Shown: positions 542 to 63,379, counted from the stretch's first letter. The stretch: DNA of 64,000 nt from a virus (IMGVR_UViG_3300028840_005764:64001-128000), one strand, 5' to 3'. A program made the numbers and translations. Notes: a model not told the origin generated them from the sequence alone.

Positions 542-979
542 ATGGATGAAACAAATAGAACGAGGCACCGTGCCGTTGACCGTATTGATGGCTGCATAAT
601 ACCTACTGGGTTTGAGTACTTCGTCGAGCTAATGGAGGAAATTAGTGCGGTGAAACACAAGGGTACTGTAAGCGTTTTTTTGGATGAAACTGAGCGCCCT
701 TTTCTATCTATCATGAAACAGGGCAGCAATAATCAGCGCATCACTATCGTGCTCAATAAGAGTAGAGAGTGGGAGCCAACAAGACGTTACAAAAGTATTA
801 CTCTTGAACCATGGCATACAGGAGATATCAGAGTTACGGTGCCTGCGAACGAGAAAGCACTGAAACAGGCATTCAAGCTTGCACGCGAGTGGAAAGAGGC
901 AAAGGATTTCCATAAGCCCACTACCACTGTGCTTGGTACAAAAAAAGGTATACGACGTCGGCCTCGTCCAAAACTGTAG
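542..979 (+). CDS. Hypothetical protein with C-terminal IRRRPRPKL tag
   Basis: 145-aa ORF in operon position between the poly-Asp gene and dnaE. Confidence 0.65.
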   Translation: MDETNRTRHRAVDRIDGCIIPTGFEYFVELMEEISAVKHKGTVSVFLDETERPFLSIMKQGSNNQRITIVLNKSREWEPTRRYKSITLEPWHTGDIRVTVPANEKALKQAFKLAREWKEAKDFHKPTTTVLGTKKGIRRRPRPKL

Positions 980-1015
980 ACCCATCTTCTGTACAATTCT
1001 ATCCTGAGACGAAGC

Positions 1016-4000
1016 ATGAAACACTTCGCACATCTGCACGTCCATTCTGAATATTCAATTCTTAAAGGGATTGGTGAGATCAAGTCCTGGTATGAAGCAG
1101 CTGCAAAGCGTGGGATATCGGCATTAGCTTTTACTGAATATGGGAATATGAATTCTGCTATGGCTTCTTATCTACAGTCATTAGATACGGATGGAGTGAA
1201 GGCAATATTTGGTATGCAAACTCTTGTTGTACAGGATGTGCATGCGACCATGCAAGAGGAACCAATAATATTACTGGCTAAAAATGAGACAGGTTATAAG
1301 AATTTATTGCAACTGAATAATTGGGCGTGGATAAATGGGTTTGATAGTAAACGTCAAACCGCACGCGTTGGCTATGAACAATTATATGATTACAGGAAGG
1401 GTTTATTTGCATTGACAGGCTCGCTTTCTGGGCCTGTGGCAATGGCTTCTGAAGTTGATTTTCATATTGCTGAAAGAGCTATTTATCAATTGAAAGAAAT
1501 ATTTGGTAAGCGCTTATATCTTGAACTTCAATTGAATGATGTACATGAACAAAAAATATATAATAATAAATTGATTAGATTATCACATAATACAAATGTA
1601 GAAATAGTTATTACAAACGATTGTCATTATCCCAATAAAGGAGAACACAAATTAGCTGATGTTGTGGAGAAAATAGATCGAATGAGTATTAAATCCTCTA
1701 AAAGAGGAAGATCATTTGATAGCACACAAAAGTGGTTAAAGAGTTATAAACAATTAAATATTATTAGAAATAAACTTCATGCTTATATTACATTAACAGA
1801 TTTTAATAAATATGTCTCGAATACTAATAAAATAGCGGAACAATGTAATGTTAGTATATCTATTGGTAAACATAGTTTGCCACAATATGATATAAAATCA
1901 CATCCTATGTATGAAGATGATATGAAAGATGATAAAGATTTATTTAATAAAATAGCTAAGACTGGATTTCGTAGTAAAATAATAAAAAGTAAAAAGAGAA
2001 AGAATAATAAAAAGAAATATTTGAAACAGTTTAAATATGAAGTTGATATTATAGGCAAAGCAAATTTCATAAATTATTTTTTAATTGTTGAAGATATTAT
2101 TAGATACGCGAGAGTATCAAATATTGAAGTGGGCGCAGCGCGCGGTTCTGTTGCTGGTTCATTGGTTGCATTCTGTATGGGTATTACTGATGTAGATCCG
2201 TTTGAATTTGATTTGATGTTTGAGCGTTTTTTGAATCCAACACGTATTAGTGGTGAGCGCGCGCAAAGTGCTGACGCGCTGCCTGATATTGACTTGGATT
2301 TTGAGAGGGTAAGGCGCCCTGAAATTAAGAAATATTTAGTTGAAAAGTATGGAGAAGATAGAGTTTGTACAATTGGTTCGTATCAGACTATGAAATTGAA
2401 GAGTTTATTACGTGACTTACATAGAGCATTCGAACATCGTATACCAGATGAGACAGGTTATTATGATTATAGTAATGATGAATTATTTGCTTTAATTAGG
2501 AAATTAGACAAAGACAAAATTGATGACTTAGATAAAGCTTTGAATAAAAGTGAAGCGTTTAAGGAGTTTTATAAAAGATTTCCTTATTTTGTTGACTTTT
2601 ATTTGAAGAAACTTGATGGGCAAATTCGTTCACGCTCTAAACATGCGGCTGGTGTCATTGTGACACCAACATCCATATCAGATTGGATTCCGATTAGGAC
2701 ACAGAAGGTTGAAGATGAAGAGGAACGAGTCGCTGTTTCACAGTGGGAAGATACCTTTTGTGAGCGTCGTGGTTTGCTTAAGTTAGATGTGCTTGGCATC
2801 AAGACCCTCAACGTTTTCAAACGTGCCAGGGAGCTTATCCTCAAGCGACGCGGTAAAAAGATCGATCTATCTAAAGTTAGGTTGGACGACCAGGATGTGT
2901 TTGATGAATTTGATGCTGGTAAAACCGAGGGTGTTTTTCAGTTTAATTCTCATTTACAGAGTCAATATCTGAAGCGTTTAGATGTGACAGAGTTTGAAGA
3001 TCTTATTACTACTAATGCTTTGTTGCGGCCTGGCCCAATGGATGCGAAGGCTCATGAATTATATATTGAATTGAAGTCTGGTGAACGCAAACCAAAATAT
3101 GATCATCCTATGATTGAACCGTATCTGCGTAGGACATATGGACTTTATGTGTATCAGGAAGACGTTATGCGCACTGCGCATGTTCTTGGTAAATTGACTT
3201 TGGCAGAAGCAGATATTATGCGCACTGCTATGAAAAAACACGACAAAGATCAGATGGAGGCTTTTCGTGAGAAATTTGTTAAAGGATGTGTGGAAAATGG
3301 TTTGAAGAAAAAACATGGGAATAAGGTTTGGGATAAATTACTGGCATTTTTTGCTTATGGTTTCAATAGATGTATACACGCCTTTTCAGAAATAACTCTA
3401 TCAAATGGTAAAAAAAGAAGAATATCTAGATTGTATAATGATTATCTAAAAGGGAAGGAAATAGTATTAAAAAGTTATGATATAGAAACTGGAAAAATTG
3501 TTGATAATGTAGTTGAAGAGATTGTATATACTGGTAAAAAGAATTTAGCTAAGTTTTTTCTACAAGATGGTAAGAATATACGGTTGACAAGTAGACACGG
3601 TATTGGCACTGATCGTGGTTTTCGATTGATGAAAGATATTATTAATACCGATCTGATTTGGATATTAAATGGAAGTGAGGCGCAACAAGTTGGCGTTGAT
3701 GCTTATAATACTTTTTATGATGATAGATACAAAGAAGATACATATGATATTGTAATGGTAAATAAACCGCATAATTATTTCGCCAATGACATACTTGTTC
3801 ATAACAGCCACAGCGCAAGCTATGCATTGATTGGATATCTTTGTCAATGGTTGAAAGTATATTATCCGCTTGAATATTGGTCTGCGACATTAGAGTACGC
3901 TGCAGACGACGAAAAGAAGTCTGAAAATATATGGACTTTTCGTAGTACTATTATTAAGTATGGATATCAATTTGAACGCCCACGTGCAAATCGCAGTGAT

Positions 4001-5263: not shown

Positions 5264-5776
5264 GTGGCAAAAAAACGAAATCGGCTGAGGGAGCTTCTTC
5301 TCATCAAGGATCATCTCCTTGGTGAGAAGATTGTTCTCGATGTTTGGGATGATCTCAAGCTGAACGAAGACGAACCTGAAGTAATGATGCAGGATTGTCT
5401 TTTCGGGCACCAGTTGTCTGGGCATCTTGAGGCTGTGGCAGAGGCGCGATATGAACTTGGCAAGGTCGAGTTAGATCACGTCTATGCCGAGATGGACAAT
5501 TTCGCGCGTGAGATGGAGGTCATGGCAAGACCAACAGATGCTAAGGTAAAAGCATGGATTCTACGTGAAGGAAAATATATAACCAAACGCAAAGAATTAA
5601 TTGAATTAAAAATGAAGTATCAATTCTTGAAAGTATTAAGTAAATCATTCGTAATGAAGGCTGATTTCATTCGTACGAAAGTGGCAAGCAGACGCGCTGA
5701 GCTCGCGATGCCAGCGACTTCTGTTGAGACAGTGAAGAGAAAGAAAAAAAAGAAGAAGAAAAAATCGGAGGAATAA
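5264..5776 (+). CDS. UvsY-like recombination mediator (putative) with poly-Lys tail
   Basis: Helical coiled coil with PTDAKVKAWI...Y...K pattern, immediately upstream of the SSB-like and RecA genes. Confidence 0.55.
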   Translation: MAKKRNRLRELLLIKDHLLGEKIVLDVWDDLKLNEDEPEVMMQDCLFGHQLSGHLEAVAEARYELGKVELDHVYAEMDNFAREMEVMARPTDAKVKAWILREGKYITKRKELIELKMKYQFLKVLSKSFVMKADFIRTKVASRRAELAMPATSVETVKRKKKKKKKKSEE

Positions 5777-6769
5777 ATGGCCGTCAAGACTGACCTGGCC
5801 AAGCTAGGTAAACGGGCCGCCGATCATAAAGCTGGTAGGGACAGATATGACGGCCCAGGCAATTTCATAGTTGAAGCAGATTCAAGCAGGTTCATCATTC
5901 TCTGCCCACCGCACGAAAACATGGGTGGTTATCCATTCGTCGAAAACATGTATCATCACCGTGATATACCACGGGATGCTAATGGTAGTTTCAACATCCG
6001 CTGTATGCGGAATAACTACAAAGATGATACTAATAAATGCGCACCTTGTACAAAGATGGTCAAATTCAGAAAGAAGCGCAAGGACAAGGGCGACAAATGG
6101 GATGAGAAAGCGCGCGAACACGCACCAAAGTTGAAGCCAATTGGGCAGGTGATCGACATTACCTGTATCATGCGTGCCAATGGCGAGATTAAGAAAAAAG
6201 TCAAGCCGTGTTTTGGCGCTTATGGCGACGAAGACGGTTGTGACAAGTGCTATATGCGCGACGCGTGTGAGGACCTCCCCAAGAAGTACTATTGCCCAGT
6301 GGGCGTGTGGGAGGAGCTGCTCGACCATTTCGAGGACGAGGGCGACATCACAGACTTGAGTAAGGCTATCCCAATTCGTATTAAGCGTAAGGGTTCTGGT
6401 CGCTACGATACGAAGTACAAGACCAAGGCCTTCCCAAAGTCGGCTATCGAGTTCCCATCCAAAGCCAGGAAGCGTATCGAGAAAGCGCTCTATGATCTAA
6501 GTACTCTGGATCCAAAACCAGAGGGTACGGCGGATGAGATAAAAGAAAAGTACAGAAAGTTCTTCTCACTGGAGGATATAGATACTGACACCAGTGGCGA
6601 TGATGATGACGACGAGCCCAAGCGTCGTCCGCGGTCTGGTGGTAAGAAAAAATCTGCAAAGAAAAATAACAAAAAGAAGTCCAGTGAGAATACGGACAAA
6701 AAGAAACGCGGCGAGAAGCTCAGGAACAAGTTGAAGAAGAAAGCGAAGAAGGGCAAACTCGACCGTTAG
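5777..6769 (+). CDS. gp32-like single-stranded DNA-binding protein (putative)
   Basis: Zn-type H...C...CxxC, GDITDL...IRIKRKGSG..DTKY core, acidic patch; sits next to recA. Confidence 0.65.
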   Translation: MAVKTDLAKLGKRAADHKAGRDRYDGPGNFIVEADSSRFIILCPPHENMGGYPFVENMYHHRDIPRDANGSFNIRCMRNNYKDDTNKCAPCTKMVKFRKKRKDKGDKWDEKAREHAPKLKPIGQVIDITCIMRANGEIKKKVKPCFGAYGDEDGCDKCYMRDACEDLPKKYYCPVGVWEELLDHFEDEGDITDLSKAIPIRIKRKGSGRYDTKYKTKAFPKSAIEFPSKARKRIEKALYDLSTLDPKPEGTADEIKEKYRKFFSLEDIDTDTSGDDDDDEPKRRPRSGGKKKSAKKNNKKKSSENTDKKKRGEKLRNKLKKKAKKGKLDR

Positions 6770-6781: not shown

Positions 6782-7867
6782 ATGATTTGTCGAATCCCCC
6801 GTAGGAAGACAGAGCACACACAGAAAAAAAAGGTATCCAGAAATCAGTTGATTCGTTCGCTGAAGAAAATCGGATACAAAGATCTATCGGATCAATCGAG
6901 TTCTCTGCTTGTTCGGCGATGTCTTCCTACGGGGATTCCATGTCTCGACGTGCTCTCAGCCTGTGACGTGGATGGTGTCTACGGCTTACCATTTGGCCGT
7001 CAGATTGAATTCTCCGGGAAAGAAGATTCTGGTAAGACCAGCATCATGCTGGCCATAGCGGCCTCTGCACAGCGCCAGGGGTACATCGTGCTTTGGATAG
7101 AGACAGAGCAGACTTTGTCAAAGGAAAGAGCTCAGGTGCTGGGCGCTGACATCGATTACTTCCTGTTGGATGAGCCTGACTACCTGGAACAGGCCATATC
7201 TCGTGTCAAAAAAGCGGTGGAAAAATTACCACAATATGATGAGAAAGGATATTCGAAGAATAAAGGTCTTGTGATTTTTTGGGACAGCATTGCCGCTACT
7301 CCAACAAAGGCAGAGTATGCGCCCAAGAAAAAGAAAGACGTCGATGAGGAAAAAGACAGTGCGATGGCTGATTTCGCAAGGAAGATGTCTCGCTTTCAAC
7401 GGCAAATGAAGAAGAAGATTGCGAAGCGCAATGTGATGATGATCTACGCTAATCAAATCAAAGAGAAGATTGGTGTTATGTTTGGCTCGAAGACCGCCAC
7501 TTACGGTGGGAAGGCGCTGAAGTATCATTGTACATTGAGATTCGTGATCACATACACGGGAAAAATAAAAGGGAAAAATAACAAACCAGTCGGTATGACT
7601 ATAAAAGTAGATAACATAAAGAATAAATGTCGTATGCCATTCAGAGGTTTTGAGGGCTTGGAATTCACCTTCGGCGGTGGATTCAATTATCCACAAGCTC
7701 TTTTGTATGCTTTGGAAACACTTGGGTATGCAAAGAAAGAAGGACCAAAATATTTTGTGTATCCATTGGGTCAAGAAGCATCTTATAAAAAATCTGAATT
7801 CGAGAAGTTAATAAAAAATAAACCTGTGATAGCAAGAAAACTCATGGAAGTTGTCAATGGTTCCTAA
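6782..7867 (+). CDS. recA: RecA/UvsX recombinase
   Basis: PTGIPCLD, GLPFGRQIEFSGKEDSGKT (Walker A), WDSIAA, NQIKEKIGVMFG, GGKALK, KNK. Confidence 0.93.
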   Translation: MICRIPRRKTEHTQKKKVSRNQLIRSLKKIGYKDLSDQSSSLLVRRCLPTGIPCLDVLSACDVDGVYGLPFGRQIEFSGKEDSGKTSIMLAIAASAQRQGYIVLWIETEQTLSKERAQVLGADIDYFLLDEPDYLEQAISRVKKAVEKLPQYDEKGYSKNKGLVIFWDSIAATPTKAEYAPKKKKDVDEEKDSAMADFARKMSRFQRQMKKKIAKRNVMMIYANQIKEKIGVMFGSKTATYGGKALKYHCTLRFVITYTGKIKGKNNKPVGMTIKVDNIKNKCRMPFRGFEGLEFTFGGGFNYPQALLYALETLGYAKKEGPKYFVYPLGQEASYKKSEFEKLIKNKPVIARKLMEVVNGS

Positions 7868-9294: not shown

Positions 9295-11925
9295 GTGGAA
9301 AACAAAATCACGCTTAAGTTCGAGCCATATTTCATATCATCCGAAGAAGATCTTGATGAACATCTCAATTGGATACAAAGAGATGCTGTTATAAAAGGTG
9401 CTGATGGCAGTATAATTTTTCAACAAAAAGATGTTGAATTCCCTGATTTCTGGTCCGATACAGCTGTCAATATAGTATCTGATAAGTACTTCAGAGGTAT
9501 TCTCGGTTCTGATGAACGAGAATATAGTTTGAAACAGTTGGTGAACCGTGTTGTCGATACAATTACTCAGTATGGTATTGAGTTAGGATATTTTGATGAT
9601 GAGAACGCTAAAATATTTCAGTGTGATTTGAAGTTTCTTATTTATATGCAATATTACTCTTTCAATTCTCCAGTTTATTTCAATGTTGGTATTGATCCGA
9701 ATCCACAAGTCGCCGCGTGTTTCATACTTGGCGTAGATGACCACATGCCATCCATTATGGAATTGGCACGCACAGAAGCTATGATTTTCAAGGGAGGTTC
9801 AGGCGCCGGTACTAATTTTTCCAAGCTCCGCAGCAAATACGAGCATCTATCAGGAGGAGGTAAAGCTAGTGGGCCTGTGTCTTTCATGCGTGGTTTGGAT
9901 AGCTTCTCTGGCGTGATTAAGAGTGGTGGTAAAACTAGACGTGCTGCGAAGATGGCTATCCTTGACATAGACCATTTAGATATATTGGAATTTGTTGAAT
10001 GCAAGCTGATAGAGGAAGGTAAGGCTTCTGCTCTTATTCAAGCAGGATACAGCCCACATTTCGAAGCAGATAACAATGCGTATTCTTCTGTTGCGTTTCA
10101 AAATGAGAATCACACCATTAGAGTATTTGATAAATTCATGCAAGCTGTAGAACAAGATGATGAATGGGATTTACGTTACGTAACAAATCAACAACGCAAA
10201 TACGTTAAAGCGCGTGAAATATTCATGCGTATCTGTGAATGCGCACACCAATGCGGCGATCCTGGGTTGTTATTTTCTGATACAGCGAATCGATATCATA
10301 CAACTCCAGCTTCTGGTAAAATTGTGGCTACTAATCCTTGTGGCGAATATATTGATATTGATGATTCCGCATGCAATTTAGGTTCATTCAATCTTATGCG
10401 TTTTGTACAACATCACGATAGTCATTTTTCATTTGATGTTGATGCATTTAAGGCGGCCGTTAGGATCGCAACGATAGCGCAGGAAATCATTATTGATAAA
10501 GCTAGTTATCCAACCGATAAGATCAAGCGTAATGCGGTTAATCATAGGCAATTAGGGCTTGGATATTCAAATCTAGGTACGTTGATTATGTATTGTGGTT
10601 ATCCATACGACTCACGCGACGGACGTGCACTGGCTGCTTCTATTTCTGCCTTGTTGACCTCTTCTGTATATAACACTAGTTGTGATGTTGCTCTTGTGAA
10701 GGGTACGTTTAAAGAGTTTGATAAGAATAAGGATAAGATGCAGCAAGTTTTGTGGCGTCATGCTTCTAATGTGAAAGATATTGAGACAGATGTAGATGGT
10801 ATTAAAGAGATCATAGATGCTGTTGAAGATACGTGGCAGTCTGTTACGGAGAAATATCAACATCATGGTATTCGCAATTCAAAAGCTACAGTGATAGCCC
10901 CAACAGGCACTATCGGGTTTATGATGGATTGCGATACGACTGGAGCTGAGCCAGAACTTTTTCTTGTAAAACACAAGACACTGGTAGGTGGTGGTAGTAT
11001 TAAAATCGTTAATAGGTCTATAGGTCATGTGCTGGCTAATTTAGGATATGACCAAAAAACAATATCTAAGATTGCAAATTACATAACTGAGAATGAGACA
11101 TTGGAACGATGTAAGTTAATCAAAAAAGAACATATTCCGATTTTTGATTGTGCTTTTGGCAGTAGTGAGAAAAGTAGAGTCATTGCCCCAGAAGGTCATG
11201 TCAGAATGTTGGCTGCTATTCAACCACATATATCTGGAGGTATTTCAAAGACAGTGAATCTTCCTGAAAAGGCTTCTGTGCAGGATGTATATAATATTTT
11301 TATGTTAGCGCACAAGCTTAAGCTAAAAGCTATTACAATTTATCGTAACAATTCGAAGGGCTCGCAACCGTTAAATGTGAAGAAAAATGATGATGATAAA
11401 AAGCCTAAGCAGGTAAAGAGAAAGATGGCTGCAGAGCGCAAGGCCTTAGCCCATGATTTTAATATTCAAGGCCATAAGATCTATCTTCATTGTGGACTTT
11501 TCCCAGATGGCACATTGGGTGAAATTTTCATTCGTGCGTCTAAAGAAGGTTCCACTATGACGGGGTTATTGGATTCAATTGCCGTTTTAACATCTACCTC
11601 ATTACAATATGGTGTACCTCTCGAGGTGCTTTCAAAGAAGCTGGCATATACTACTTTTGAGCCACAGGGATTTACACCTAAGATGGGTTATGCTCGCAGT
11701 ATAACAGATTATATTTTTCGTTATTTGCTCCAGAAATTCAGCGGTCACGTTTTGGATGGTGACACAGTGATTGAAGATGATGAAGAAGCTCCTGTGCCGC
11801 CACGTGCTTTGCTGGACACCCCTACATACGACGCTCCGCCGTGTCCCAACTGCGGTTCGATCATGGTCAGGAATGGTTCGTGTTTTAAGTGTGAGACATG
11901 TGGAGAGACTAGTGGGTGTTCATGA
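9295..11925 (+). CDS. nrdJ: Class II (adenosylcobalamin-dependent) ribonucleotide reductase
   Basis: FNSPVYFN, AACFI, GGKTRRAAKM, TNPCGE, IAPTGTI, ISKTVN, C-terminal GEIF domain and CPNCG..CETCG zinc ribbon. Confidence 0.93.
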   Translation: MENKITLKFEPYFISSEEDLDEHLNWIQRDAVIKGADGSIIFQQKDVEFPDFWSDTAVNIVSDKYFRGILGSDEREYSLKQLVNRVVDTITQYGIELGYFDDENAKIFQCDLKFLIYMQYYSFNSPVYFNVGIDPNPQVAACFILGVDDHMPSIMELARTEAMIFKGGSGAGTNFSKLRSKYEHLSGGGKASGPVSFMRGLDSFSGVIKSGGKTRRAAKMAILDIDHLDILEFVECKLIEEGKASALIQAGYSPHFEADNNAYSSVAFQNENHTIRVFDKFMQAVEQDDEWDLRYVTNQQRKYVKAREIFMRICECAHQCGDPGLLFSDTANRYHTTPASGKIVATNPCGEYIDIDDSACNLGSFNLMRFVQHHDSHFSFDVDAFKAAVRIATIAQEIIIDKASYPTDKIKRNAVNHRQLGLGYSNLGTLIMYCGYPYDSRDGRALAASISALLTSSVYNTSCDVALVKGTFKEFDKNKDKMQQVLWRHASNVKDIETDVDGIKEIIDAVEDTWQSVTEKYQHHGIRNSKATVIAPTGTIGFMMDCDTTGAEPELFLVKHKTLVGGGSIKIVNRSIGHVLANLGYDQKTISKIANYITENETLERCKLIKKEHIPIFDCAFGSSEKSRVIAPEGHVRMLAAIQPHISGGISKTVNLPEKASVQDVYNIFMLAHKLKLKAITIYRNNSKGSQPLNVKKNDDDKKPKQVKRKMAAERKALAHDFNIQGHKIYLHCGLFPDGTLGEIFIRASKEGSTMTGLLDSIAVLTSTSLQYGVPLEVLSKKLAYTTFEPQGFTPKMGYARSITDYIFRYLLQKFSGHVLDGDTVIEDDEEAPVPPRALLDTPTYDAPPCPNCGSIMVRNGSCFKCETCGETSGCS

Positions 11926-12554
11926 TGTCTATACACACCGATAATCGCGCAGCTATGTTCAAAAGAGATACCAAAACTAAGTGGCAAACGCCACTTTGGT
12001 TTTTTCGTTTCTTTGATAATCAGTATCATTTTGAATGGGATATGGCTGCGTCTAAAAAGAATCGATTATGTAAGAAATACGTCAATCAGAAGATGGACGC
12101 CACGTCGTTTGATTGGCCATCTAACAGCAGTCTTTGGTGTAATCCACCATATGATAGTCGTCGTCTGCATTTGTGGTTTGAACGCGGGTGGGATGCGGCT
12201 AGACATGGTTCTACGGTCGTGTTCCTTGTGCATGCGCGTACAGATACTGTGTGGTATCACGAGTGGGCTATACGTGGTCATGTTGGTTTCGTACGAGGCA
12301 GGATGAAATTTCTGTACAAAGACAGAGAGACAGATGCTGCGCCATTTCCATCTTTAGTGGTGATATATGATCCAAAAGCTGTCGAAAATTATGAGAAGAG
12401 TGGTATAGATCTATTACATCATTTTGATGGCTTCTGTATCGATGGTCGTTTGGGGACAACTTGGAGGAAATTACCACGTTATCCTAGGGCAATTGTTAGA
12501 TACCCAAGAAAAATAATAAGAACACCAAAACCAAAACATTGGAGTGGAAAGTGA
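11916..12554 (+). CDS. Phage N6-adenine DNA methyltransferase (Dam-like)
   Basis: WQTP, DMAAS, WCNPPY, ARTDT.W, GRMKF, APFPS. Carries an extra C-terminal RYPR-repeat tail. Confidence 0.88.
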   Translation: MFMMSIHTDNRAAMFKRDTKTKWQTPLWFFRFFDNQYHFEWDMAASKKNRLCKKYVNQKMDATSFDWPSNSSLWCNPPYDSRRLHLWFERGWDAARHGSTVVFLVHARTDTVWYHEWAIRGHVGFVRGRMKFLYKDRETDAAPFPSLVVIYDPKAVENYEKSGIDLLHHFDGFCIDGRLGTTWRKLPRYPRAIVRYPRKIIRTPKPKHWSGK

Positions 12555-13276: not shown

Positions 13277-13669
13277 ATGATTTGCAAAGCAATAAAATAC
13301 CATCCACGTCCTCTCATTCAACGGTTTCCTAGACCGAAGCGTATACCGTATCCAAAAAAACCAATCCACCGAGGCGAATGCCGTGATGGCATACGTCCAT
13401 GTCCTTTTGTTTCATGTAGGTATCATCTTTACGCAGATATAGTATCTGGTGTTTGGAAAGAATATTTTGAGGCTCCATGGCTTATGGAGGAGACGTGTGC
13501 TCTTGATTTGGCTGAAAGAGAACGTGGTATGAATCTTGATGACATTAGTTATTATTTTGATCTAACACGCGAGAGAATAAGGCAAATAATAGATAATTCT
13601 TTAAGAACCATCAGAACAAGAAAATTAGCTAGAGATAGGTCTATTCATGATAAAATTTCTATCGGTTGA
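13277..13669 (+). CDS. Cys-containing sigma-70 region-4-like HTH protein
   Basis: RPCPFVSCRYHL..ETCALD..MNLDDI...LTRERIRQI. Confidence 0.75.
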   Translation: MICKAIKYHPRPLIQRFPRPKRIPYPKKPIHRGECRDGIRPCPFVSCRYHLYADIVSGVWKEYFEAPWLMEETCALDLAERERGMNLDDISYYFDLTRERIRQIIDNSLRTIRTRKLARDRSIHDKISIG

Positions 13670-16094: not shown

Positions 16095-16095
16095 C

Positions 16096-17084: not shown

Positions 17085-17635
17085 AAATTAAGAGAAGGCC
17101 TAGAAAAATTTATAGAATTCCAAAAGAATCTTTGAAAAAAGGATGTGTTCTTGAGAGTAAATACTTTCCATATAAGTTGTTAATGTATATTATCAAATGG
17201 GGTATACCATATAATTTATATTCCAATAACAAAATGTATTATTTGAATATATTGGGTAAGGCGAAATACAAAAGAGAGAAACATTTTAATAGAAAGCCAA
17301 GAAGTTATTCTTCATGCGAGCCAATTTATAATAACGGCGTTAAACCTAAAGACAAAGACCCAGTTTTATATAAACAATATAAACAATTGAGAGAATGTTT
17401 TATTAATAAGGGTAGGCCATTACATGTTTACTGTGAATATGACATGCATCAGGTATCTTTGGAAACTTGTTTTTGCAGGTGTGATAAAGAATGTTCTTCG
17501 CTGCGGCCTCGCTGGTTGGTTGGGGAAGATGATGGTTTGTACAGTTATATGAATGATTTTATGAAATTGCAGAGGTTGGTCAATTTGTTGTACGGCACCG
17601 TTAGAAAACGTGACATAGAACCAACCAATCAATGA
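17081..17635 (+). CDS. Hypothetical protein with N-terminal IKRRPRK tag
   Basis: ATGA coupling to neighbouring genes. Confidence 0.6.
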   Translation: MKIKRRPRKIYRIPKESLKKGCVLESKYFPYKLLMYIIKWGIPYNLYSNNKMYYLNILGKAKYKREKHFNRKPRSYSSCEPIYNNGVKPKDKDPVLYKQYKQLRECFINKGRPLHVYCEYDMHQVSLETCFCRCDKECSSLRPRWLVGEDDGLYSYMNDFMKLQRLVNLLYGTVRKRDIEPTNQ

Positions 17636-23126: not shown

Positions 23127-23648
23127 TTATTCCTTTGGTCTTGGATATCTTTGTATTGATACACTTGCTTTTCTTCTTGTCTCATGTTCATAACATTTGA
23201 TGCAGATGCTGTGAGGCCAGTCGCCAACTCGTCTGAGTAGTGATACGAGACATGCGATTTCGGCTTTGGCGTTGTACGGTAGTAATATGTTTGGAGGCTT
23301 CTTGATGGTTATGGCTTTGCCAGTACTGCCGATGATTAGCAGCCCCCAGTTATCTGGGACTTCATGTTTTTCAATGATCCCCGCTGGTGCACAGTAGTAG
23401 CGGATTCTACCCATCCCCATCTCAGTCTTCTTCCTAAAGCTCTTTTTTTTGTCCTTTAGGAAATCAGATCTTGAGATCTTGCATTCAATAACTACGCTCA
23501 CATTGCTACCAAATGCAAGTACGTCTGGTGACTCACGTGTCGTGCTAACAATTTCTGTTATCACAACTGGATATTTTTTCTTGGCCCAGCGTGCAGCTTT
23601 TGCGATGACTTGTTCATGTGTGTAAGTGTACATGTATGTATATACCAC
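23127..23648 (-). CDS. PD-(D/E)xK nuclease-fold protein (MmcB-like)
   Basis: E.PDV...IECKISRSDF..D.KK, RYY..P, WGLL; C-terminal IQRYPRPKE. Confidence 0.7.
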   Translation of the reverse strand: MVYTYMYTYTHEQVIAKAARWAKKKYPVVITEIVSTTRESPDVLAFGSNVSVVIECKISRSDFLKDKKKSFRKKTEMGMGRIRYYCAPAGIIEKHEVPDNWGLLIIGSTGKAITIKKPPNILLPYNAKAEIACLVSLLRRVGDWPHSICIKCYEHETRRKASVSIQRYPRPKE

Positions 23649-23661: not shown

Positions 23662-24225
23662 TTATTGAGTTTTTGGTCTTGGATATCTTTTTATTGGCCT
23701 GGGGTATCTTTTTATTTTTGCATTAAGTTCTTTTTTCTTACCGCCATTCCATAATTTGTTTTGACAAATATATCCTATAGTAGACAAATGCACTCCATAT
23801 ATTGATGCAATGTATTTTAATGTATTACCATGTGTACGTAGTGTCTTAATCTCTTCAACGTCTTGTTCAGATAATTTAGCACTTGGATTTTTAGAACCCA
23901 CTAATGAACGTTGATCAAGTATCATGTCATTCATATTATCTTGATGTGTGCCGATGATTAAATGTTTTGGGTTACAGCACAATGTATTATTGCATGTGTG
24001 TCGCACACACATACCACTTGGGATTGGTCCATTGACATCTTCATACACAAGTCTGTGGGCCCTATACCATTTGCGATGTTTTTTTGAATAGTATACTTTG
24101 AACTCACCATAGTAGTTGTTAGTGCGACCCGATCTGGACTTCGCACCAGTCCATAACCAACATTCGTTAGGACCGCGCTGTTCTATCTTCTCCCATATGC
24201 GTTTGTGTATCTCTTTGTCGATCAT
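23662..24225 (-). CDS. HNH homing endonuclease with C-terminal HTH
   Basis: CWLWTG, AHRLVY, VRHTCNN..CCNP.HL..GT..DN, AKL....V.EI. Confidence 0.9.
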   Translation of the reverse strand: MIDKEIHKRIWEKIEQRGPNECWLWTGAKSRSGRTNNYYGEFKVYYSKKHRKWYRAHRLVYEDVNGPIPSGMCVRHTCNNTLCCNPKHLIIGTHQDNMNDMILDQRSLVGSKNPSAKLSEQDVEEIKTLRTHGNTLKYIASIYGVHLSTIGYICQNKLWNGGKKKELNAKIKRYPRPIKRYPRPKTQ

Positions 24226-30999: not shown

Positions 31000-31722
31000 T
31001 TATTCTGCAATTGCGTCGTTGATCGCTGCATATATTTCATCTTTTGCTCTTGCTATTTTATAGTATGGAACATGGAAAAATTCAGCTAGATGATTATTAC
31101 GTATCACAAATTCAAATGGCAAATTGGATATGAGGCCTACGTGGCGTTCACGCATTTTTTGAATACGATCGTTTTTAATTTTATTCACCAGCTCTTCTGG
31201 TGGTGTGAGTAGTGAATGTAGGACACGCCGTGCAAAAGGTTTTAATCTTTTTTCTGTGTGTTCTAATATTTCTTTGTATCTATAATCCCATTTTGCTTGG
31301 CATGAATATGGATATGATTTGATTTTATCGACTGAGATATCTTGGTTTTTCATTACCTCAATTTTTACATGTTGTTTTGGATCTTTAGGTGTGTATTTAG
31401 AATCTTTTCTAAATGCTGTCACAGCAGTATTTAAGAAGTTTTTGCGTGCTATATACATACACCAAGTTTTGATTGATGCGCGTGTCTCATCATATTTGTC
31501 TAGATTCTTAAACATTTTTAAATATGCTTCTTGAACAAGATCTTCTTTATCTATAAATGACGGTATAGATACTTTCCCAGCTTCACGCATAAGGAATGGC
31601 CGCAACTCTTGAATAGTTTTGAGGAATAGCTGTTTTCTTTCGTCAGTGACTGTGAATTTTTTCTGGCGTGGATAGAGTTTCGGGCGTGGGCGGAGCTTCG
31701 GGCGTGGTTTTCTGACAATCAC
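31000..31722 (-). CDS. Phage sigma-70-family factor
   Basis: Region-2 motif DKEDLVQEAYL....LDKYD..RASIKTW...IA; N-terminal PRPK repeats. Confidence 0.75.
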   Translation of the reverse strand: MIVRKPRPKLRPRPKLYPRQKKFTVTDERKQLFLKTIQELRPFLMREAGKVSIPSFIDKEDLVQEAYLKMFKNLDKYDETRASIKTWCMYIARKNFLNTAVTAFRKDSKYTPKDPKQHVKIEVMKNQDISVDKIKSYPYSCQAKWDYRYKEILEHTEKRLKPFARRVLHSLLTPPEELVNKIKNDRIQKMRERHVGLISNLPFEFVIRNNHLAEFFHVPYYKIARAKDEIYAAINDAIAE

Positions 31723-48071: not shown

Positions 48072-48084
48072 AAAGCCCGGGACT

Positions 48085-48891
48085 CTACTCGCTCGCGCTC
48101 AGCGCGGCGCTCAGCTTCGCCTTGCGTGCACCATGCGCAGGGAAGCCCACGATCCCCTTGCGCTGGCGTTGACAGAGCTTGCACGTGGCACACGTGATAT
48201 CATCGCGCACCGCAGCAGGACACACGCCCACGGTGCGGCCCGCAGGGGTTTTGACGGGTTTGTCGGTGCCCATAGGGAGCACGCAGACCACGGGCGCGAT
48301 CTCAAGTTCGGCCAGTGCGTCCACTTCTGCCAGGTTATCCGCGCTCAGGTTTACCGTGAATCCGCTTTCATTCATTGCCTGGATCACGGCCCTATTGTGC
48401 GCCGCATTTTCCTTGCCCGTTTCTCCCAATACGTCGTGATGCGTATACGTGAACCCCCCGCGGTTTGCGCCCACGGAATTTGCCTGGCACAACATGGCAG
48501 CAGACTCTGCGCAGATGCGATCGGGGTTGTCTTGCTCGGGGCGCAGATCTCCTAGTTCATTGTGTCGCCAGATCGTGACGCTATCCGGATCCATCTCTGC
48601 CACGGATTGGCAGAAATTTGACCAATTTGAGACGCTGTTATAGGCGCTGGCGTCGACGCGGTCCCAATGAAATCTACAGTTTCCCCCCTCCCCGTAACAA
48701 CCCCCCGATCCACGGAGCGGGCAGACGATCGGGCAAGTGGAACGGCTCGAACGGCTCACCGGGATCTCACCGGTTTTGATATTCTTTGAGACGTGGGTTA
48801 GTTGGTGCGTTGTCGGGCTCGCATTGCGTTTGGCGACGGTGAGAAGTGCGAGGAAAAGAGCGGCGATCGTGTTCTTGATCTCTGTCATCAT
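48085..48891 (-). CDS. Cys-rich phage protein, Gp88-like/radical-SAM-like (putative Fe-S)
   Basis: N.KTG.I, TCP..CP......CY, RHN..GD, FTYTH, VNLSA, CPA...TC..C.LC, GFPAHG. Confidence 0.65.
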   Translation of the reverse strand: MMTEIKNTIAALFLALLTVAKRNASPTTHQLTHVSKNIKTGEIPVSRSSRSTCPIVCPLRGSGGCYGEGGNCRFHWDRVDASAYNSVSNWSNFCQSVAEMDPDSVTIWRHNELGDLRPEQDNPDRICAESAAMLCQANSVGANRGGFTYTHHDVLGETGKENAAHNRAVIQAMNESGFTVNLSADNLAEVDALAELEIAPVVCVLPMGTDKPVKTPAGRTVGVCPAAVRDDITCATCKLCQRQRKGIVGFPAHGARKAKLSAALSASE

Positions 48892-48957
48892 GGCTTGATC
48901 CCTTCTGACGTCTTATGAAAACTTGGTGTGTTTTCTGCGCCCGTTTGCGTGTCTTGT

Positions 48958-49871
48958 TTAGAACGTTCCCCGGTAGTTTCCAGCGCCATCCCAGAACAAG
49001 CGCGATCCGTCGGGCGCGATCGTTCCCTCGTCGTCAAAGTGCCAACCGTCGACGCTGGCGATCGTTGCGGCAAGCTTGCCGATCGCGTTTTCTGTTTCGG
49101 TGTAGTGACATTGCGCGTAGTAGAGACGATCGCCCATGGTTTCGCACGTGCTGTCATCATATGGCACGTGGATCGGTGCGTGCGCCGCTTTCTCGTCGAG
49201 ACGATCTGCCATTGTCCCGAAGATCGGCGCGATCGTCGCGTTGTCTTGCGTCGCCAGCGCTTCCTGAATTTGGCCACTATGATCGCGCCGATCGGCGCGA
49301 TCCTTGCGCTGGCGCGCTTCTGATTTGTACCATCGATCGTCTTTGTTGAGCTTGCGCGCGTGCTTCGGAGTGCGATCGATCGCGTTCGGCGCCACGGACT
49401 CGAACAACTTGCGATCGCGCTTTGCTGCGTTGCGTGTTGCTGTTCTGCGCGTTGCGCGCTTGCGGTTCTTTGGTGCGCTTGTGGCCAGTGTTGCGAGTGT
49501 TGCGAGTGTTGCGAGCATCGTGTTTCCCTCGTGTTTCGTGGTTTCTCGTTTCAATCCAAGATCGGGCAATGGCAAATTGCGGTTCTGTCTTCGCGCTTTG
49601 CGGGTGCGCTGTTGAGTTCAACAAAGAGGCTTGCGTGATAGGCCTCAAGTTCGGTTTTGATGCGCTCGCACCTTGCCACGGCGATCGGGTAGAGACGATC
49701 GCAAGCTGCGAGCGTGCGCGCTTGGCACGCTTCGGGTGCCCAGTATGCATGCCAAGCGGCGATCGTTTCGGGTGCTACTTGTACTGTGTGCGCAAGTGGC
49801 AAGCGCTTGTGATTGGCGATCATGCTGGCGACGGCAAGAGCGGCGGAGATACAAAGCAAGATCGTGATCAT
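48958..49871 (-). CDS. Two hypothetical genes (48958-49575, 49551-49871) in a GATC-dense segment
   Basis: GAGGG RBSs upstream of both likely starts. Confidence 0.5.
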
Positions 49872-50618
49872 GTGGTTTCCCTCGTGTTGATATCTCTTTA
49901 TATCACGCTTTAGAGCGTGATTAGATATTTTTTTAATAACGTATTGATATCATTGAAATCTTAGCTCTTGTCTAGGCTAGTATTTCGTGTTGTGTGTGCA
50001 TATGTCACATTAGCCTACATGCAAGCTAAGTTATTGAATTCATTGACTAAGCAATGTGATCTCATTACCCTATAACTTCACATAAAAGACCTATAACTAT
50101 CGGCACAACTTATTGTTATTATTATACAATCTCGACCATAGGCAAAAAAACGGTTTTCGATTGTGTTTTTCCAATGTCCTACATGTAGGACAAGGTATAC
50201 AAATGGGGGTGGATGTAGTATGGCGGGCGCGCCCCTACTACCTTGTCCTACATCTAGTTTGTGGTGCTCGTTTCACTTGTTTTGGTATAATACTTGCTAG
50301 AAAAGTGAGACAATACCTACATTTGTTTACACACATAATTATATATAACTTATGCATAATTTATATATCATTGTACCTATGGCACCATATATATATGTCG
50401 TGCTGAGAGCTCCTAGGATGCTCTCTAACGAACGAAAAAATCGGAGATATCAGCCTATGGATAGGCTTGCGATCGTCCAATACAGAGGAAATGTGATCTA
50501 AATCACATTTTAAAATATATCTTATCACTGCCTCAAAACGAGACGATCACTAGTGTGTCAAATTGCGACAGTGCATAGCTTATCGCTAGGCTACCCAAGC
50601 CGAGACCTAGGCTAGTCT

Positions 50619-61581: not shown

Positions 61582-61956
61582 TTATATTATTCCTATATAT
61601 TTAAGTAAAGCCATGGCGATTAGAACAAATAATGATAATACACCAATTACAATACATATTAGAACGAATGCGACTATGATTTCTATTATTGTAAAACCTT
61701 TATTTAGATTTGATTTATTTCTTTTTATTAATTTCATTATCTCGTCTATCTTTACTTCTACAGCTCCAGCGGCTATTGCTTTTTCTTGAAGCTGTTCATC
61801 AAGCTCATAGCAAGGATGTAATTTTGTATTTAAGAATTTCGAACGATCCAATCCAAGTTTTTCTTCAGCAAACTTATGAAGGAATTTGACATCACCATCA
61901 GATATTAGTTTTTGATTATGTATCATCATCTTTTTTGGGCGCGGATATAGCGGCAT
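61582..61956 (-). CDS. DUF4031-like protein with C-terminal prepilin-type GFTxIE segment
   Basis: LISD....LH.FA..LGL.R..F...HP.Y.L.....KAI.AGA ; KGFTIIEIIV followed by a hydrophobic helix. Confidence 0.6.
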   Translation of the reverse strand: MPLYPRPKKMMIHNQKLISDGDVKFLHKFAEEKLGLDRSKFLNTKLHPCYELDEQLQEKAIAAGAVEVKIDEIMKLIKRNKSNLNKGFTIIEIIVAFVLICIVIGVLSLFVLIAMALLKYIGII

Positions 61957-62341
61957 CTTTTCCTCTGTTCTTTTTGAAGCAATTGCGTATTACTTGCATC
62001 TTCCAATATGTGTCAATCAGAATGCAAAGTTGACGTACAGATACATCTATTGTAGCTGTGTCGCCGTTCATGGTGCGCATGCCATAATCGGCTTCAGAAA
62101 GTAATCTCGTTATTTCTTTGTCATTGAGAGTGCTGTAATCTTGATCTCTAGCACATGTGATGAGATTGACTAATTTCTTTTGATCGTTGTCTGATAGAAG
62201 CGGTGTTTCTATCTCTTTCAAATCTCCAGTTGAAATGTAGAACGTATGTGTTTTCGCACGTGGATATTTTTGTTTTTCCGCGTGTTTTTTTATTTTGTAC
62301 GGCATGGCGATAACCTCCGACGGTTATATACCACAATGCCT

Positions 62342-63379
62342 TTATTTTTTTACTGACAAAATGGCATCACGAATAGCGATTGCGAGATTGTAGGCGAGGG
62401 GTGGGGCCACTGAGTTTCCAATCTGCCCAAGAACAGAATAGATCGGGCCACTGAAAACGTAGTCCTTTGGGAATCCCTGGATGATTTTGATGTCCTCGAG
62501 CGACAGCCTGTAGCACCCGTGGTTCTTTCCTTGTACAGCCTTGTCCAGAGCATCCAAACGCGTCTTCTGGATGCCGTGTGCCCAAATCTGGAGCTTCTCC
62601 CACACGCCTTTGGCGTAGGCTGAGTTCATGATGGAGGTTGTTGGATTCTTCTTCTTGAGGCCAGAAGTCAATGTTGGTGCCAATGTGTCGAATCCGATGG
62701 CTGGCAATCCGAGAGCTTCGCGCACGCCCATCTCGAAGCTGTGTGTGGGTAACGGTATGTGGAAATTCTTCATAAATTTCTTATTTCTGAACCCAATGAA
62801 AAACACGCGTTGTCGATTCTGTGGGCATCCGAAATCGTTGGCGTGCAACAAGCATTTGATAGTAGTGTACTTTTCATCTCTTGCCGGGATGAATATCTGC
62901 TCGCGCACGTACTCGTAGAAGCGATCGGAGAGAATGTTGGGGACATTTTCAATCAAGAAGATTTTCGGTCGTAGTGTTTTGACGATCTGCATGAACGCAG
63001 GGATCATGTCGCGTTCATCATCACCCCCCTTCAGCTTCCCATTTTTCGAGAACGGTTGGCACGGAGGGCCGCCAATGATGACATCTGGTTTGTCATATTT
63101 TCTGAAATCTGTTTCCGTCACATCGCCATGAACCTTGATTTTTTGATGGTTTAGGCGAAGTGTGTTGGCTGATTTGTCGTGGGTCTCATTGAAGCAGAGG
63201 ATGTCGAAGCCCGCGCGAATGAACCCTAGATCCAGTCCGCCACATCCGCTGAATAACGATATGGTTTTGATGCCGTTTTTTTTCAATTGTTGAATGAAAT
63301 CACCAGGTTCAATTTTCGGTGTAGGAACCTTATAATTTTGTTTCATTTTCTTCGTTTTTGGTCTAGGTTTTAGTTGCAT
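62342..63379 (-). CDS. C5-cytosine DNA methyltransferase
   Basis: SLFSGCGGLDLG, GGPPCQPFS, ENV, Q.R.R.F, QIGNSV.P. Confidence 0.95.
   Translation of the reverse strand: MQLKPRPKTKKMKQNYKVPTPKIEPGDFIQQLKKNGIKTISLFSGCGGLDLGFIRAGFDILCFNETHDKSANTLRLNHQKIKVHGDVTETDFRKYDKPDVIIGGPPCQPFSKNGKLKGGDDERDMIPAFMQIVKTLRPKIFLIENVPNILSDRFYEYVREQIFIPARDEKYTTIKCLLHANDFGCPQNRQRVFFIGFRNKKFMKNFHIPLPTHSFEMGVREALGLPAIGFDTLAPTLTSGLKKKNPTTSIMNSAYAKGVWEKLQIWAHGIQKTRLDALDKAVQGKNHGCYRLSLEDIKIIQGFPKDYVFSGPIYSVLGQIGNSVAPPLAYNLAIAIRDAILSVKK

Follow-up and report, generated by a model that had tools for sequence, protein, structure and literature searches.

A short arginine-proline tag at the ends of unrelated, mostly DNA-acting proteins in a clade of large uncultured phages

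Results

An arginine-proline peptide at the termini of phage proteins

The DNA stretch analysed here (64,000 nt, referred to as the window) is part of the complete 142,861 bp (~143 kb) genome of an uncultured bacteriophage. A peptide of eight residues with the consensus [IVL]-x-R-[YFHI]-P-[RK]-P-[KIV] recurs in its proteins, in many of them in tandem. In the aligned units of this phage and its relatives, the copy number varied from 1 to 5 with a period of about 7 residues. The following tags were found in the window (gene coordinates in parentheses):

950..973, plus strand: C-terminal tag, one unit, conserved 145-aa protein (542-979); matrix match and ortholog comparison
6785..6808, plus strand: N-terminal tag, RecA/UvsX-like recombinase (6782-7867); Pfam RecA, PHROG UvsX-like
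12471..12536, plus strand: three tandem C-terminal units, Dam-family N6-adenine methylase (11916-12554); matrix scores 13.0-18.6
13292..13357, plus strand: two to three tandem N-terminal units, small sigma-70 region-4-like protein (13277-13669); domain and matrix matches
17087..17125, plus strand: one to two N-terminal units, 184-aa protein without assigned function (17081-17635); matrix match
23133..23156, minus strand: C-terminal tag, PD-(D/E)XK/Hjc-like nuclease (23127-23633); matrix score 22.7
23671..23715, minus strand: two tandem C-terminal units, homing-type endonuclease with HNH and HTH domains (23662-24225); matrix scores 25.3 and 24.5
31660..31719, minus strand: three tandem N-terminal units, sigma factor (31000-31722); Pfam Sigma70_r2 from residue 37
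61933..61956, minus strand: N-terminal tag, DUF4031 protein with a C-terminal hydrophobic segment (61582-61956); domain and matrix matches
62252..62275, minus strand: weak tag-like stretch near the N-terminus, 129-aa protein without assigned function (61916-62305); loose pattern only
63356..63379, minus strand: N-terminal tag, C5 cytosine DNA methylase (62342-63379); contains P-R-P-K, below the matrix threshold

An earlier note on this DNA had listed eleven tag sites, and all 11 were present at the respective genes. The copies of the 61916-62305 protein and of the C5 methylase did not reach the matrix threshold and are weaker than the others. The author of the note had seen no tag in the GC-rich genes at 32.5-50 kb, and no in-frame copies were present there.

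The position matrix was trained exclusively on instances from related phages (38 in number). It gave 18 matches in 10 proteins of this genome, compared to 1.3 ± 1.1 (maximum 6) for shuffled proteins. Seventeen of these matches were located no more than 30 residues from an end, and the remaining one at residue 39 in the N-terminus of the large terminase, which is predicted to be disordered. For pattern enrichment we used 199 crude gene calls from the whole genome and derived the expectation from within-protein shuffles. P-R-P-K was observed 8 times (0.29 expected), always 30 residues or fewer from a terminus. A looser pattern was observed 18 times and was always terminal, with an expectation of 3.0, of which 1.1 were terminal. 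Terminal enrichment as proposed earlier was thus seen with both patterns. Judged from the sequences, the shared terminal tag is real and under selection.

At the two core positions, Arg was used far more often than Lys (42 to 5 and 50 to 13) in genes that are AT-rich and in proteins that use poly-Lys elsewhere. An aliphatic residue at -4 and an aromatic residue at -1 were kept across lineages and client proteins. The residue preceding Pro was Tyr, Phe, His, or Ile in 39 of 63 aligned units and Thr in only 3, and therefore the tag does not fit the SPKK motif (Ser/Thr-Pro-(Lys/Arg)-(Lys/Arg)). Gly was absent from the common residues at all eight listed positions. Seven tag segments of 24-61 residues matched no Pfam family at E ≤ 10, including the AT-hook (PF02178; Arg-Gly-Arg-Pro core), and a comparison with PDB chains also gave no match.

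Tagged proteins and their orthologues

The tags lie outside the Pfam and PHROG domain matches, with the exception of the DUF4031 protein, in which the Pfam match starts at residue 5. The Pfam Dam match stops before the tag at residue 153 of 212, PHROG 631 covers residues 3-117 of the 168 residues of the PD-(D/E)XK nuclease (which also has a weak Pfam Hjc match), and HNH_3 and HTH_38 finish by residue 152 of 187 in the HNH endonuclease. The DNA_methylase match of the C5 methylase starts at residue 37. The ATG of this gene is preceded by an AAGGAGG site, and the GTG start of the sigma factor gene by a GGAGG site. A GAGG site is present upstream of the start of the DUF4031 gene; since this start overlaps the preceding gene by 41 nt, the DUF4031 copy of the tag is probably rather than certainly genuine.

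In four related uncultured phage lineages, orthologues were tagged at the same ends. G001, a more distant complete relative, has the tag on only about four proteins, among these the terminase and Dam. The 542-979 gene lies immediately upstream of the PolIII alpha gene and is a real gene: its L001 orthologue (57% identity) has the same terminal motif, and the orthologue in L004 and G001 is without it. The RecA copy is marginal in this phage (matrix score 12.1), yet strongly conserved among orthologues. The N-terminus M-[IL]-[IV]-R-[IVF]-P-[RK] was retained in most of 13 orthologues with 43%-53% identity, while the following ~15 residues were variable. Dam orthologues are also tagged in L001, L072, and L073. 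The region-4-like protein has 2-3 units at the same end in L001, L072, L073, and L075 and only a short basic stretch in G001. The 17081-17635 protein, for which the Atlas search returned no fold, has three units in L001 and L075, and its G001 orthologue (117 aa) lacks the entire N-terminal extension. The G001 orthologue of the sigma factor 31000-31722 is untagged. The tag tail was absent from all 20 HNH homologues found and also from the G001 homologue, all of which stop right behind the HTH. The alignments to homologues that the earlier note had called for, with G001 orthologues and 20 HNH homologues lacking the tag, bear out its view that the tag is an addition specific to certain lineages, made to unrelated proteins that for the most part act on DNA, a mobile HNH endonuclease among them.

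All tagged proteins with a recognizable function work on DNA or, together with RNA polymerase, on promoter DNA: RecA/UvsX, Dam, the C5 methylase, the PD-(D/E)XK nuclease, the HNH endonuclease, two sigma-type proteins, and the large terminase. Two additional DNA methylases are tagged in L072. The matrix scan revealed no tag on structural, lysis, or nucleotide-metabolism proteins, and in a relative it was missing from 22 small early proteins, dCTP deaminase, and MazG. PolIII alpha, DnaB, primase, Mre11, Rad50, RuvC, UDG, FEN, and the SNF2 helicase are DNA enzymes without the tag.

Conservation of the peptide and exchange with poly-Lys

The copies in the window leave none of the six Arg codons and none of the four Pro codons unused. 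The same codon was found at only 30% of matched Pro/Arg positions, and mean nucleotide identity between units was 0.49. Every synonymous Arg and Pro codon being in use, the peptide and not the DNA is what is conserved, which answers a doubt raised in the earlier note. The tag lies outside folds, is kept in orthologues while the flanks vary, and is gained and lost by lineage, as is typical of short linear motifs. Domain limits, codons, orthologues, and a structure model of the terminase together support a short linear motif that is selected at the peptide level and located in disordered termini.

The large terminase (L005:10080-12065) is encoded outside the window. In its structure model the tagged N-terminus is predicted to be disordered (pLDDT 34-49, compared to 80-94 for the fold). 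Every homologue with at least 45% identity has 1-5 copies of the tag in an N-terminal extension, where homologues with 36%-46% identity have a Lys tract (25%-39% Lys). From this distribution, the large terminase is the oldest and most widespread carrier. A similar exchange was seen for the 170-aa protein 5264-5776, which has a C-terminal Lys run at the place of the tag in L001, L010, L072, and L073. RecA of poorly tagged relatives has Lys-rich N- or C-tails and no tag.

Acidic proteins of the replication module

Two proteins encoded in the window are candidate acidic partners of the tags:

1..502, plus strand: 3' part of the gene for a 276-aa poly-Asp protein (genome 63672-64502); sequence composition, conserved slot
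5777..6769, plus strand: gp32-like single-stranded-DNA-binding protein (SSB), untagged; Atlas feature score 0.92, TM 0.68 to the gp32 family

The 276-aa protein contains 152 Asp, 120 of them in one run, and has Lys-rich ends. A strongly acidic protein is encoded at the same slot in L001, L004, L010, L073, and L074. The Asp run comprises 120-135 residues in this phage and L001, and an acidic protein is conserved in the replication module clade-wide. This poly-Asp protein is a candidate for a polyanionic partner, and the gp32-like SSB, in which an Asp-rich tract is followed by a Lys-rich tail, is a second one.

Discussion

Linear motifs that join many enzymes to one partner, such as the PIP box, clamp motifs, and SSB tails, organize DNA metabolism in cells. 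In phages, only small sets of proteins with a shared motif are known to us, e.g., the clamp-binding tails of T4. The clade of large uncultured phages described here marks about a dozen unrelated DNA enzymes, including a newly arrived homing endonuclease, with one peptide. In all likelihood the tag links these proteins either to DNA or to a partner that is acidic.

Possible tethering to DNA

The tag could well be a portable, disordered, polyanion-binding arm that tethers enzymes to the phage DNA in the manner of AT-hooks, SPKK motifs, or molecular sleds, a reading that we adopt tentatively. Units of ~7-8 residues (aliphatic, any, Arg, aromatic/aliphatic, Pro, Arg, Pro, Lys/aliphatic) at a free protein end would contact DNA through two proline-framed arginines, in the narrow minor groove or at the backbone, and tandem copies would add avidity. 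Arg is the favoured residue in narrow minor grooves. A tagged enzyme would be held on the phage DNA, probably sliding along it, and recombinase, methylases, nucleases, sigma factors, and terminase would thereby be locally enriched on the substrate they share.

The data lean to a polyanion (DNA) tether because tag and poly-Lys tails interchange at the ends of orthologues. Since G001 with its few tags still marks terminase and Dam, whatever reads the tag must be common to all lineages, which is true of DNA. We infer that the ligand is DNA rather than a DNA-mimicking acidic protein. The preference for Arg despite AT-rich genes and poly-Lys elsewhere, the variable copy number with a period as in AT-hooks and SPKK repeats, the DNA-acting clients, and the disorder predicted for the terminase N-terminus also speak for a tether. 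On the other side, electrostatic binding to DNA does not need an aliphatic residue at -4 and an aromatic one at -1, which resemble contacts to a protein pocket, and plain poly-Lys tails in the same proteomes leave it unexplained why a stereotyped motif is retained. Many DNA enzymes are untagged, the DUF4031 client has no known link to DNA, and the lack of a Pfam match extends to the AT_hook family.

Like the tag, AT-hooks (HMGA type) and SPKK/SPRK motifs are short, basic, and proline-framed, have an Arg core, occur singly to in tandem, and are appended beyond the folds of unrelated DNA-binding proteins. The phage tag differs by lacking the Gly-Arg-Pro core and Ser/Thr ahead of Pro and by its conserved aliphatic and aromatic positions; its binding to DNA is putative. 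Phage tags are also nearly all at extreme ends, the exception being a copy in G001 Dam that is followed by a zinc ribbon. The adenovirus pVIc 'molecular sled' is a very short basic peptide that on its own binds to DNA, slides on it, and takes the enzyme joined to it to its targets (PMC4740752, PMC4797294). It is likewise a virus-encoded means of speeding reactions on the viral genome; however, it has a KRRR-type core, is cleaved from a precursor and then bound to a protease, and belongs to a eukaryotic virus, whereas the phage tag is fused to many proteins. As a DNA tether, the tag would be a natural 'sled' that evolution has fused to enzymes, and a simple and transferable means of making them more active on DNA.

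Possible docking on a hub

The main alternative, possible but somewhat unlikely, is a docking motif for one dedicated receptor or hub, which would serve as an address label to a replication or packaging factory. The hub might be the poly-Asp protein, which with its Lys-rich ends probably binds DNA, the gp32-like SSB through its Asp tract, or a host protein (beta clamp, SSB, DnaK, or RNA polymerase). The fixed aliphatic and aromatic positions and the strict Pro-Arg-Pro core across clients and lineages argue for a hub. So does the position of the tags at extreme protein ends, as in clients of the beta clamp and PCNA. Clamp-client peptides (PIP box, beta-clamp motif, tails of T4 gp43, gp55, and gp33) are also terminal motifs on many unrelated DNA enzymes. 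T4 gp55 and gp33 attach to the gp45 clamp by terminal tails, and in our phage, too, both halves of a split sigma function are tagged, as a region-2 protein and a separate region-4-like protein. However, clamp-client peptides are based on Gln and hydrophobic residues and are usually single, whereas the tag is Arg/Pro-based and resembles no known clamp-, SSB-, or PCNA-binding motif. Sliding clamp families (DnaN, gp45, PCNA; PF00712, PF02768, PF02916, PF00705) gave no match in the complete genome, while control genomes were matched. The tag therefore does not qualify as a client motif of a phage-encoded clamp; the host clamp is still a possible partner. It is unusual for a pocket-docking motif to form tandem arrays (up to 5-7 copies) and to be replaced by poly-Lys in orthologues, and the syntenic replication module has no gene confined to the richly tagged lineages.

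The conservation of a strongly acidic protein throughout the clade also argues for a hub, and the binding of basic motifs by acidic tracts has precedents. Multivalent Arg-rich linear motifs on many proteins bind to the acidic tracts of nucleophosmin (PMC4786410). The T4 gp32 protein has a basic N-terminal LAST motif and a near-identical internal motif that binds DNA; the terminal one is proposed to bind to a region of the adjacent gp32 molecule that is acidic and mimics DNA (PMC12424627). Both systems invite comparison with a phage that encodes a poly-Asp protein and a gp32-like SSB. They differ in that nucleophosmin belongs to a eukaryotic nucleolar system and gp32 is a single-protein case, and the interaction in the phage is putative. 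It is rather doubtful, if conceivable, that the tag is an address label read by a receptor, for example a phage nucleoid or condensate built by the DNA-bound poly-Asp protein. Such a label would mean that a single linear signal directs the clade's recombinase, methylases, nucleases, sigma factors, and terminase to a factory for replication and packaging that has no membrane. No sorting signal for a phage replication compartment would have been defined by sequence before. If a protein reads the tag, the hub would be a new one, and the tag could be put to use as a sorting signal.

Less likely readings: turnover, capsid loading, nuclear import, and DNA-level origin

We consider it improbable that the tag sets protein lifetime or folding, as a degron for a host AAA+ protease or as a DnaK site. 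The extreme N- or C-terminal placement is typical of degrons; the tag is, however, common to early, middle, and late (terminase) proteins, and tandem multiplication and exchange with poly-Lys are at odds with a degron. Proline-rich antimicrobial peptides (oncocin, Bac7, pyrrhocoricin) bind DnaK and the ribosome through cores that resemble the Tyr-Pro-Arg-Pro of the tag, and they share with it repeated Pro-Arg-Pro and an aromatic residue before Pro. This likeness is compositional only. These peptides are secreted by animals and target DnaK and the exit tunnel of the ribosome, and the tag lacks the central Leu that occupies the DnaK pocket.

Slightly more improbable still is capsid loading, one of the suggestions of the earlier note. 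As a capsid- or procapsid-loading peptide, the tag would bring enzymes into the head, from which they would be injected along with the DNA. Short terminal tags on unrelated cargo are the hallmark of such loading (T4 capsid-targeting sequence, P1 Dar proteins, encapsulin cargo peptides), injected methylases, sigma factors, and recombinase would be useful in early infection, and a tag-like stretch at the portal N-terminus is conserved in G001. However, the T4 and encapsulin sequences are unrelated to the tag, and in the phage it is cytoplasmic DNA enzymes and the terminase that are tagged. The large terminase, the oldest and most widespread carrier, acts outside the head and is no capsid cargo, which makes capsid loading unlikely. 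Moreover, the tag is on none of the structural-module proteins, it occurs at either protein end with variable unit number, and a protease-site context is absent.

Entry to a chimallin-type phage nucleus, another suggestion of that note, found no support. In the complete genome the phiKZ gp54 query gave nothing for chimallin at E ≤ 1 in a single-sequence search of limited reach, the tubulin family including PhuZ had no match, and the encoded sigma factors work with bacterial RNA polymerase.

Very improbable, and largely refuted by the codon use and the low nucleotide identity of the units, is a DNA-level by-product of junction cassettes or of the next gene's ribosome-binding sites that has no peptide function; it would leave the N-terminal copies and the retention of the peptide in 50% identical orthologues unexplained. 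What such a by-product might look like is seen in L072, where three adjacent methylase genes share ~40 nt of near-identical 3' DNA (38 of 44 nt for one pair) that also resembles the Dam end of L001, and where the final unit overlaps an AGGAGG-type site and an ATGA start-stop overlap with the next gene.

Enrichment, Position and Composition of the Tag

The peptide tag ([IVL]-x-R-[YFHI]-P-[RK]-P-[KIV], often tandem) had been described in the earlier note at the ends of unrelated proteins, and comparison with shuffled sequences showed it to be both enriched and terminal. The 199 gene calls of the whole genome came from our own longest-ORF heuristic, which is unreliable in GC-rich parts (the RecA of the distant relative G001 was missed, for example). 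Among these calls P-R-P-K was seen 8 times versus 0.29 expected from within-protein shuffles, in all 8 cases at most 30 residues from a protein end. A looser five-residue pattern was seen 18 times, always terminally, versus 3.0 expected (1.1 terminal). To avoid circularity, a position matrix was trained on 38 instances from related phages only and then run on this proteome. It found 18 matches in 10 proteins versus 1.3 ± 1.1 in shuffles (maximum 6), and 17 of the 18 were at most 30 residues from an end. The remaining copy, at residue 39 of the large terminase, sits in a segment that AlphaFold2 predicted to be disordered (pLDDT 34–49 versus 80–94 in the fold).

Among the tagged genes in the window
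542-979, 145-aa protein
11916-12554, Dam
13277-13669, sigma region-4-like protein
17081-17635, 17081 protein
23662-24225, HNH endonuclease with helix-turn-helix
31000-31722, sigma factor
61582-61956, DUF4031 protein
62342-63379, C5 methylase

The eleven copies listed originally are real overall; those of 61916-62305 and the C5 methylase are weaker and fell below the matrix threshold. ORF 542-979 is a real conserved gene. The tags lie outside the domain matches of Pfam and PHROG; the one exception is the DUF4031 protein, whose match already begins at residue 5.

For the motif composition 63 units from 35 tagged termini at 10 loci were aligned, with the first Pro as anchor. Each tagged terminus has between one and five units, repeated about every seven residues. 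Tags at the N-terminus usually start at or beside the initiator Met, and those at the C-terminus end at most a few residues ahead of the stop.

Composition of the motif in 63 aligned units
Position -4: Ile/Val/Leu 37/63
Position -3: variable, often Lys
Position -2: Arg 42, Leu 9, Lys 5
Position -1: Tyr/Phe/His 32, Ile/Val/Leu 12
Position 0: Pro (anchor)
Position +1: Arg 50, Lys 13
Position +2: Pro 32
Position +3: Lys 20, Ile/Val 19

Searches with the tag itself returned little. Among 1.8 billion representatives phmmer matched a 33-residue tag segment to one protein, probably the orthologue, and no chain matched the tag segments among PDB sequences. Pfam assigned no family to these segments even at E ≤ 10. 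Two tandem units, written as a degenerate DNA pattern, matched IMG/VR 7 times, in no case convincingly as a terminal tag: five matches were in frames open for at most 51 residues, and two lay within longer open frames on GC-rich contigs. Nothing relevant was found by a full-text literature search with the motif strings, and an Atlas search with the 17081 protein gave no fold. We place the tag among shared linear motifs or basic DNA arms.

Distribution of the Tag in Related Phages

The source record is a complete virus genome of 142,861 bp with direct terminal repeats, of which the window comprises bases 64,001-128,000; GC content in the window ranges from 36% to 65% (2-kb bins). Megablast searches with 20-kb pieces found no GenBank phage similar in DNA sequence, and in the protein search the large terminase had no cultured match above 32% identity, the value of the best one. 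Single-protein IMG/VR scans with RecA and the sigma factor as queries gave no match. RecA homologues with 43–53% identity defined a clade of uncultured phages whose replication modules are strictly syntenic; most of these relatives were read as 10-kb flanks.

The N-terminal tag of RecA is kept in most of the clade, and the next ~15 residues are variable. The 145-aa protein, Dam, the sigma region-4-like protein and the 17081 protein have orthologues tagged at the same end in the related contigs L001 (149 kb), L072, L073 and L075. In L072 two extra DNA methylases are inserted after Dam, and each ends with the same two-unit tag. The more distant G001, a complete genome (147,747 bp, 56.5% GC), showed no enrichment (P-R-P-K 0, looser pattern 4 versus 2.0 expected). 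There the tag is absent from the orthologues of the sigma factor, the sigma region-4-like protein, the HNH endonuclease, the 17081 protein and the 145-aa protein; units remain in the terminase, in Dam, where a zinc ribbon follows, and in one or two other proteins. The relative L074 (37% GC) was almost tagless in an 18-kb fragment and L075 (44% GC) was richly tagged. The tag is thus not simply a trait of AT-rich genomes, and a link to low GC was rejected.

That the tag is a lineage-specific addition, as had been proposed, was substantiated for the HNH endonuclease. All 20 database homologues stop directly after the helix-turn-helix. The 25-residue tail, present in none of them, was therefore added in this phage.

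L001 (NCBI GCA_054386235.1, contig JBQSHK010000012.1) is filed in NCBI under a bin labelled Candidatus Thorarchaeota. PolIII alpha of bacterial type, together with DnaB and a sigma-70 region-4 gene, suggests that it is a mis-binned bacteriophage contig.

The gene for the large terminase (L005:10080-12065 of the same genome; Terminase_6N/6C) is not part of the window; the protein has an N-terminal extension of ~60 residues. All homologues with at least 45% identity (P0059-P0077) have 1–5 tag units in this extension, directly preceding a conserved Pro-Pro-x-Tyr-Arg-Ile-Ile-Val-Lys-Lys box, and in one of them five Pro-Arg/Lys-Pro cores were counted. Most homologues with 36–46% identity (P0078-P0089, P0096) have a Lys-rich tract (21–39% Lys) without Pro-Arg-Pro, and P0099-P0102 from the same identity range have an Ile-Lys-Arg-Tyr-Pro variant in place of the Lys tract. 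Homologues of 487–489 residues lack the extension. The terminase is the oldest tag carrier. The 170-aa protein (5264-5776) has a Lys run at its end here and in L017 and a tag in four relatives, and in poorly tagged lineages RecA has Lys-rich tails. Tag and plain basic tail are thus exchanged for each other in the terminase, and likewise in the 170-aa protein and RecA.

The N-terminus of the Mu-type portal protein (L005:12069-13730, plus strand; G001:98794-100440) has a tag-like Val-(Arg/His)-Arg-Ile-Pro-Met-Pro-(Lys/Arg) that is conserved between the two genomes.

A Possible DNA Tether and Its Rivals

Every tagged protein whose function is known acts on DNA itself or, together with RNA polymerase, on promoter DNA. 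The matrix scan of the proteome found no tag on structural, lysis or nucleotide-metabolism proteins, and none of 22 small early proteins of a relative was tagged. This client list, together with the exchange for poly-Lys, the variable number of tandem copies and the preference for Arg over Lys at both core positions, points to a polyanion-binding arm. Arg is favoured in narrow minor grooves. Our tentative preference is for a DNA tether or sled at the protein terminus: the arm would bind polyanion and thereby tether its client to DNA. As a DNA arm it is comparable to AT-hooks and SPKK repeats, and to the adenovirus pVIc sled (PMC4740752, PMC4797294). Membership in the AT-hook family was rejected, since the tag lacks the Gly-Arg-Pro core that defines AT-hooks and gave no profile match at E ≤ 10. 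Electrostatics alone do not explain the conserved aliphatic and aromatic positions.

The main rival, which we regard as possible but rather unlikely, is docking on a dedicated hub. It would account for the stereotyped hydrophobic positions and for the location of the tags at extreme protein ends, as with clamp clients. T4 gp55 and gp33 bind the gp45 clamp, and tagging of both a sigma region-2 and a region-4-like protein recalls this pair. A poly-Asp gene lies directly upstream of the tagged 145-aa gene, and all relatives examined there have acidic counterparts in this slot; binding of Arg-rich motifs by the acidic tracts of nucleophosmin is a precedent (PMC4786410). However, no DnaN, gp45 or PCNA clamp was detectable in the complete genome, the syntenic module contains no gene confined to richly tagged lineages, and tandem arrays and replacement by poly-Lys are unusual for pocket-docking motifs.

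The poly-Asp protein (1-502, plus strand; start 328 nt upstream of the window, genome 63672-64502) has 276 aa with 152 Asp, the longest run being 120, in mixed GAC/GAT codons. A Lys/Ala-rich, histone-H1-like N-terminus is followed by a Cys-containing middle and a Lys-rich end. The L001 counterpart has 281 aa with a run of 135 Asp, and G001 has a 369-aa protein with 42% Asp+Glu in this slot. Possible roles for the protein are those of DNA mimic, hub or chaperone of basic tails.

The gp32-like SSB (5777-6769, plus strand) has conserved Cys residues and an Asp-rich tract followed by a Lys-rich tail, and its Lys-Gly-Lys-Leu-Asp-Arg end is conserved. A profile of its alignment matched nothing among PDB sequences. 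In L011 its tail runs on into an Asp run ending in Ile-Pro-Tyr, which resembles the bacterial SSB tip. A second precedent for hub docking comes from T4 gp32: for its basic N-terminal motif the proposed partner is the acidic, DNA-mimicking region of a neighbouring gp32 (PMC12424627).

A degron or chaperone handle is improbable. Capsid loading, put forward in the earlier note, is also improbable given that the terminase is the ancestral carrier, and import into a phage nucleus was not supported, as neither chimallin nor tubulin was matched in the complete genome. Conservation of the DNA instead of the peptide was refuted for the window: all six Arg and all four Pro codons are used, matched conserved Arg/Pro positions share the codon in only 30% of cases, and units have a mean nucleotide identity of 0.49 to each other.

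DNA-level conservation holds only at gene junctions of L072 and L001. The final C-terminal unit there overlaps with both the ribosome-binding site and the ATGA start of the gene that follows. Neighbouring methylase genes share about 40 nt of nearly identical sequence, so tags can also move within a junction cassette. The three tandem methylase genes at L072:11574-14292 (Dam, an unnamed one and N6_N4_Mtase), whose last ~40 nt are nearly identical, look like they end in such a cassette for gene insertion.

Other Features of the Genome

Replication/recombination module, left arm of the window
PolIII alpha, HU-like, gp32-like SSB, RecA/UvsX, Mre11, ribonucleotide reductase, Dam
Further members: RNase T-type exonuclease, sigma region-4-like, Rad50, RuvC-like resolvase, UDG

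A GC-rich island (32500-50000; 56–65% GC versus about 40% in other genes of the phage) looks like a recent acquisition. Its genes, encoding DUF932, a SNF2-family helicase (38289-40718, minus strand), a methyltransferase and DUF7227, are all untagged.

A small Zn-ribbon protein (16084-16323, plus strand; Zn_ribbon_8 in relatives) has a basic C-terminal end, His/Arg-Lys-Arg-x-Arg-Trp, which is kept in all relatives and is a second terminal motif, distinct from the tag.

The crude gene call on the minus strand at L005:9100-10080 (genome ~137100-138080) is likely an error. An HTH-type small terminase and a small protein whose C-terminus is conserved are encoded on the plus strand, and G001 also has both upstream of its terminase. 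A gene for a pyruvoyl-dependent arginine decarboxylase (L005:6804-7364, minus strand; genome 134804-135364) adjoins those for a 5'-3' exonuclease and the amidase endolysin, and may have a role in polyamine supply or DNA modification.
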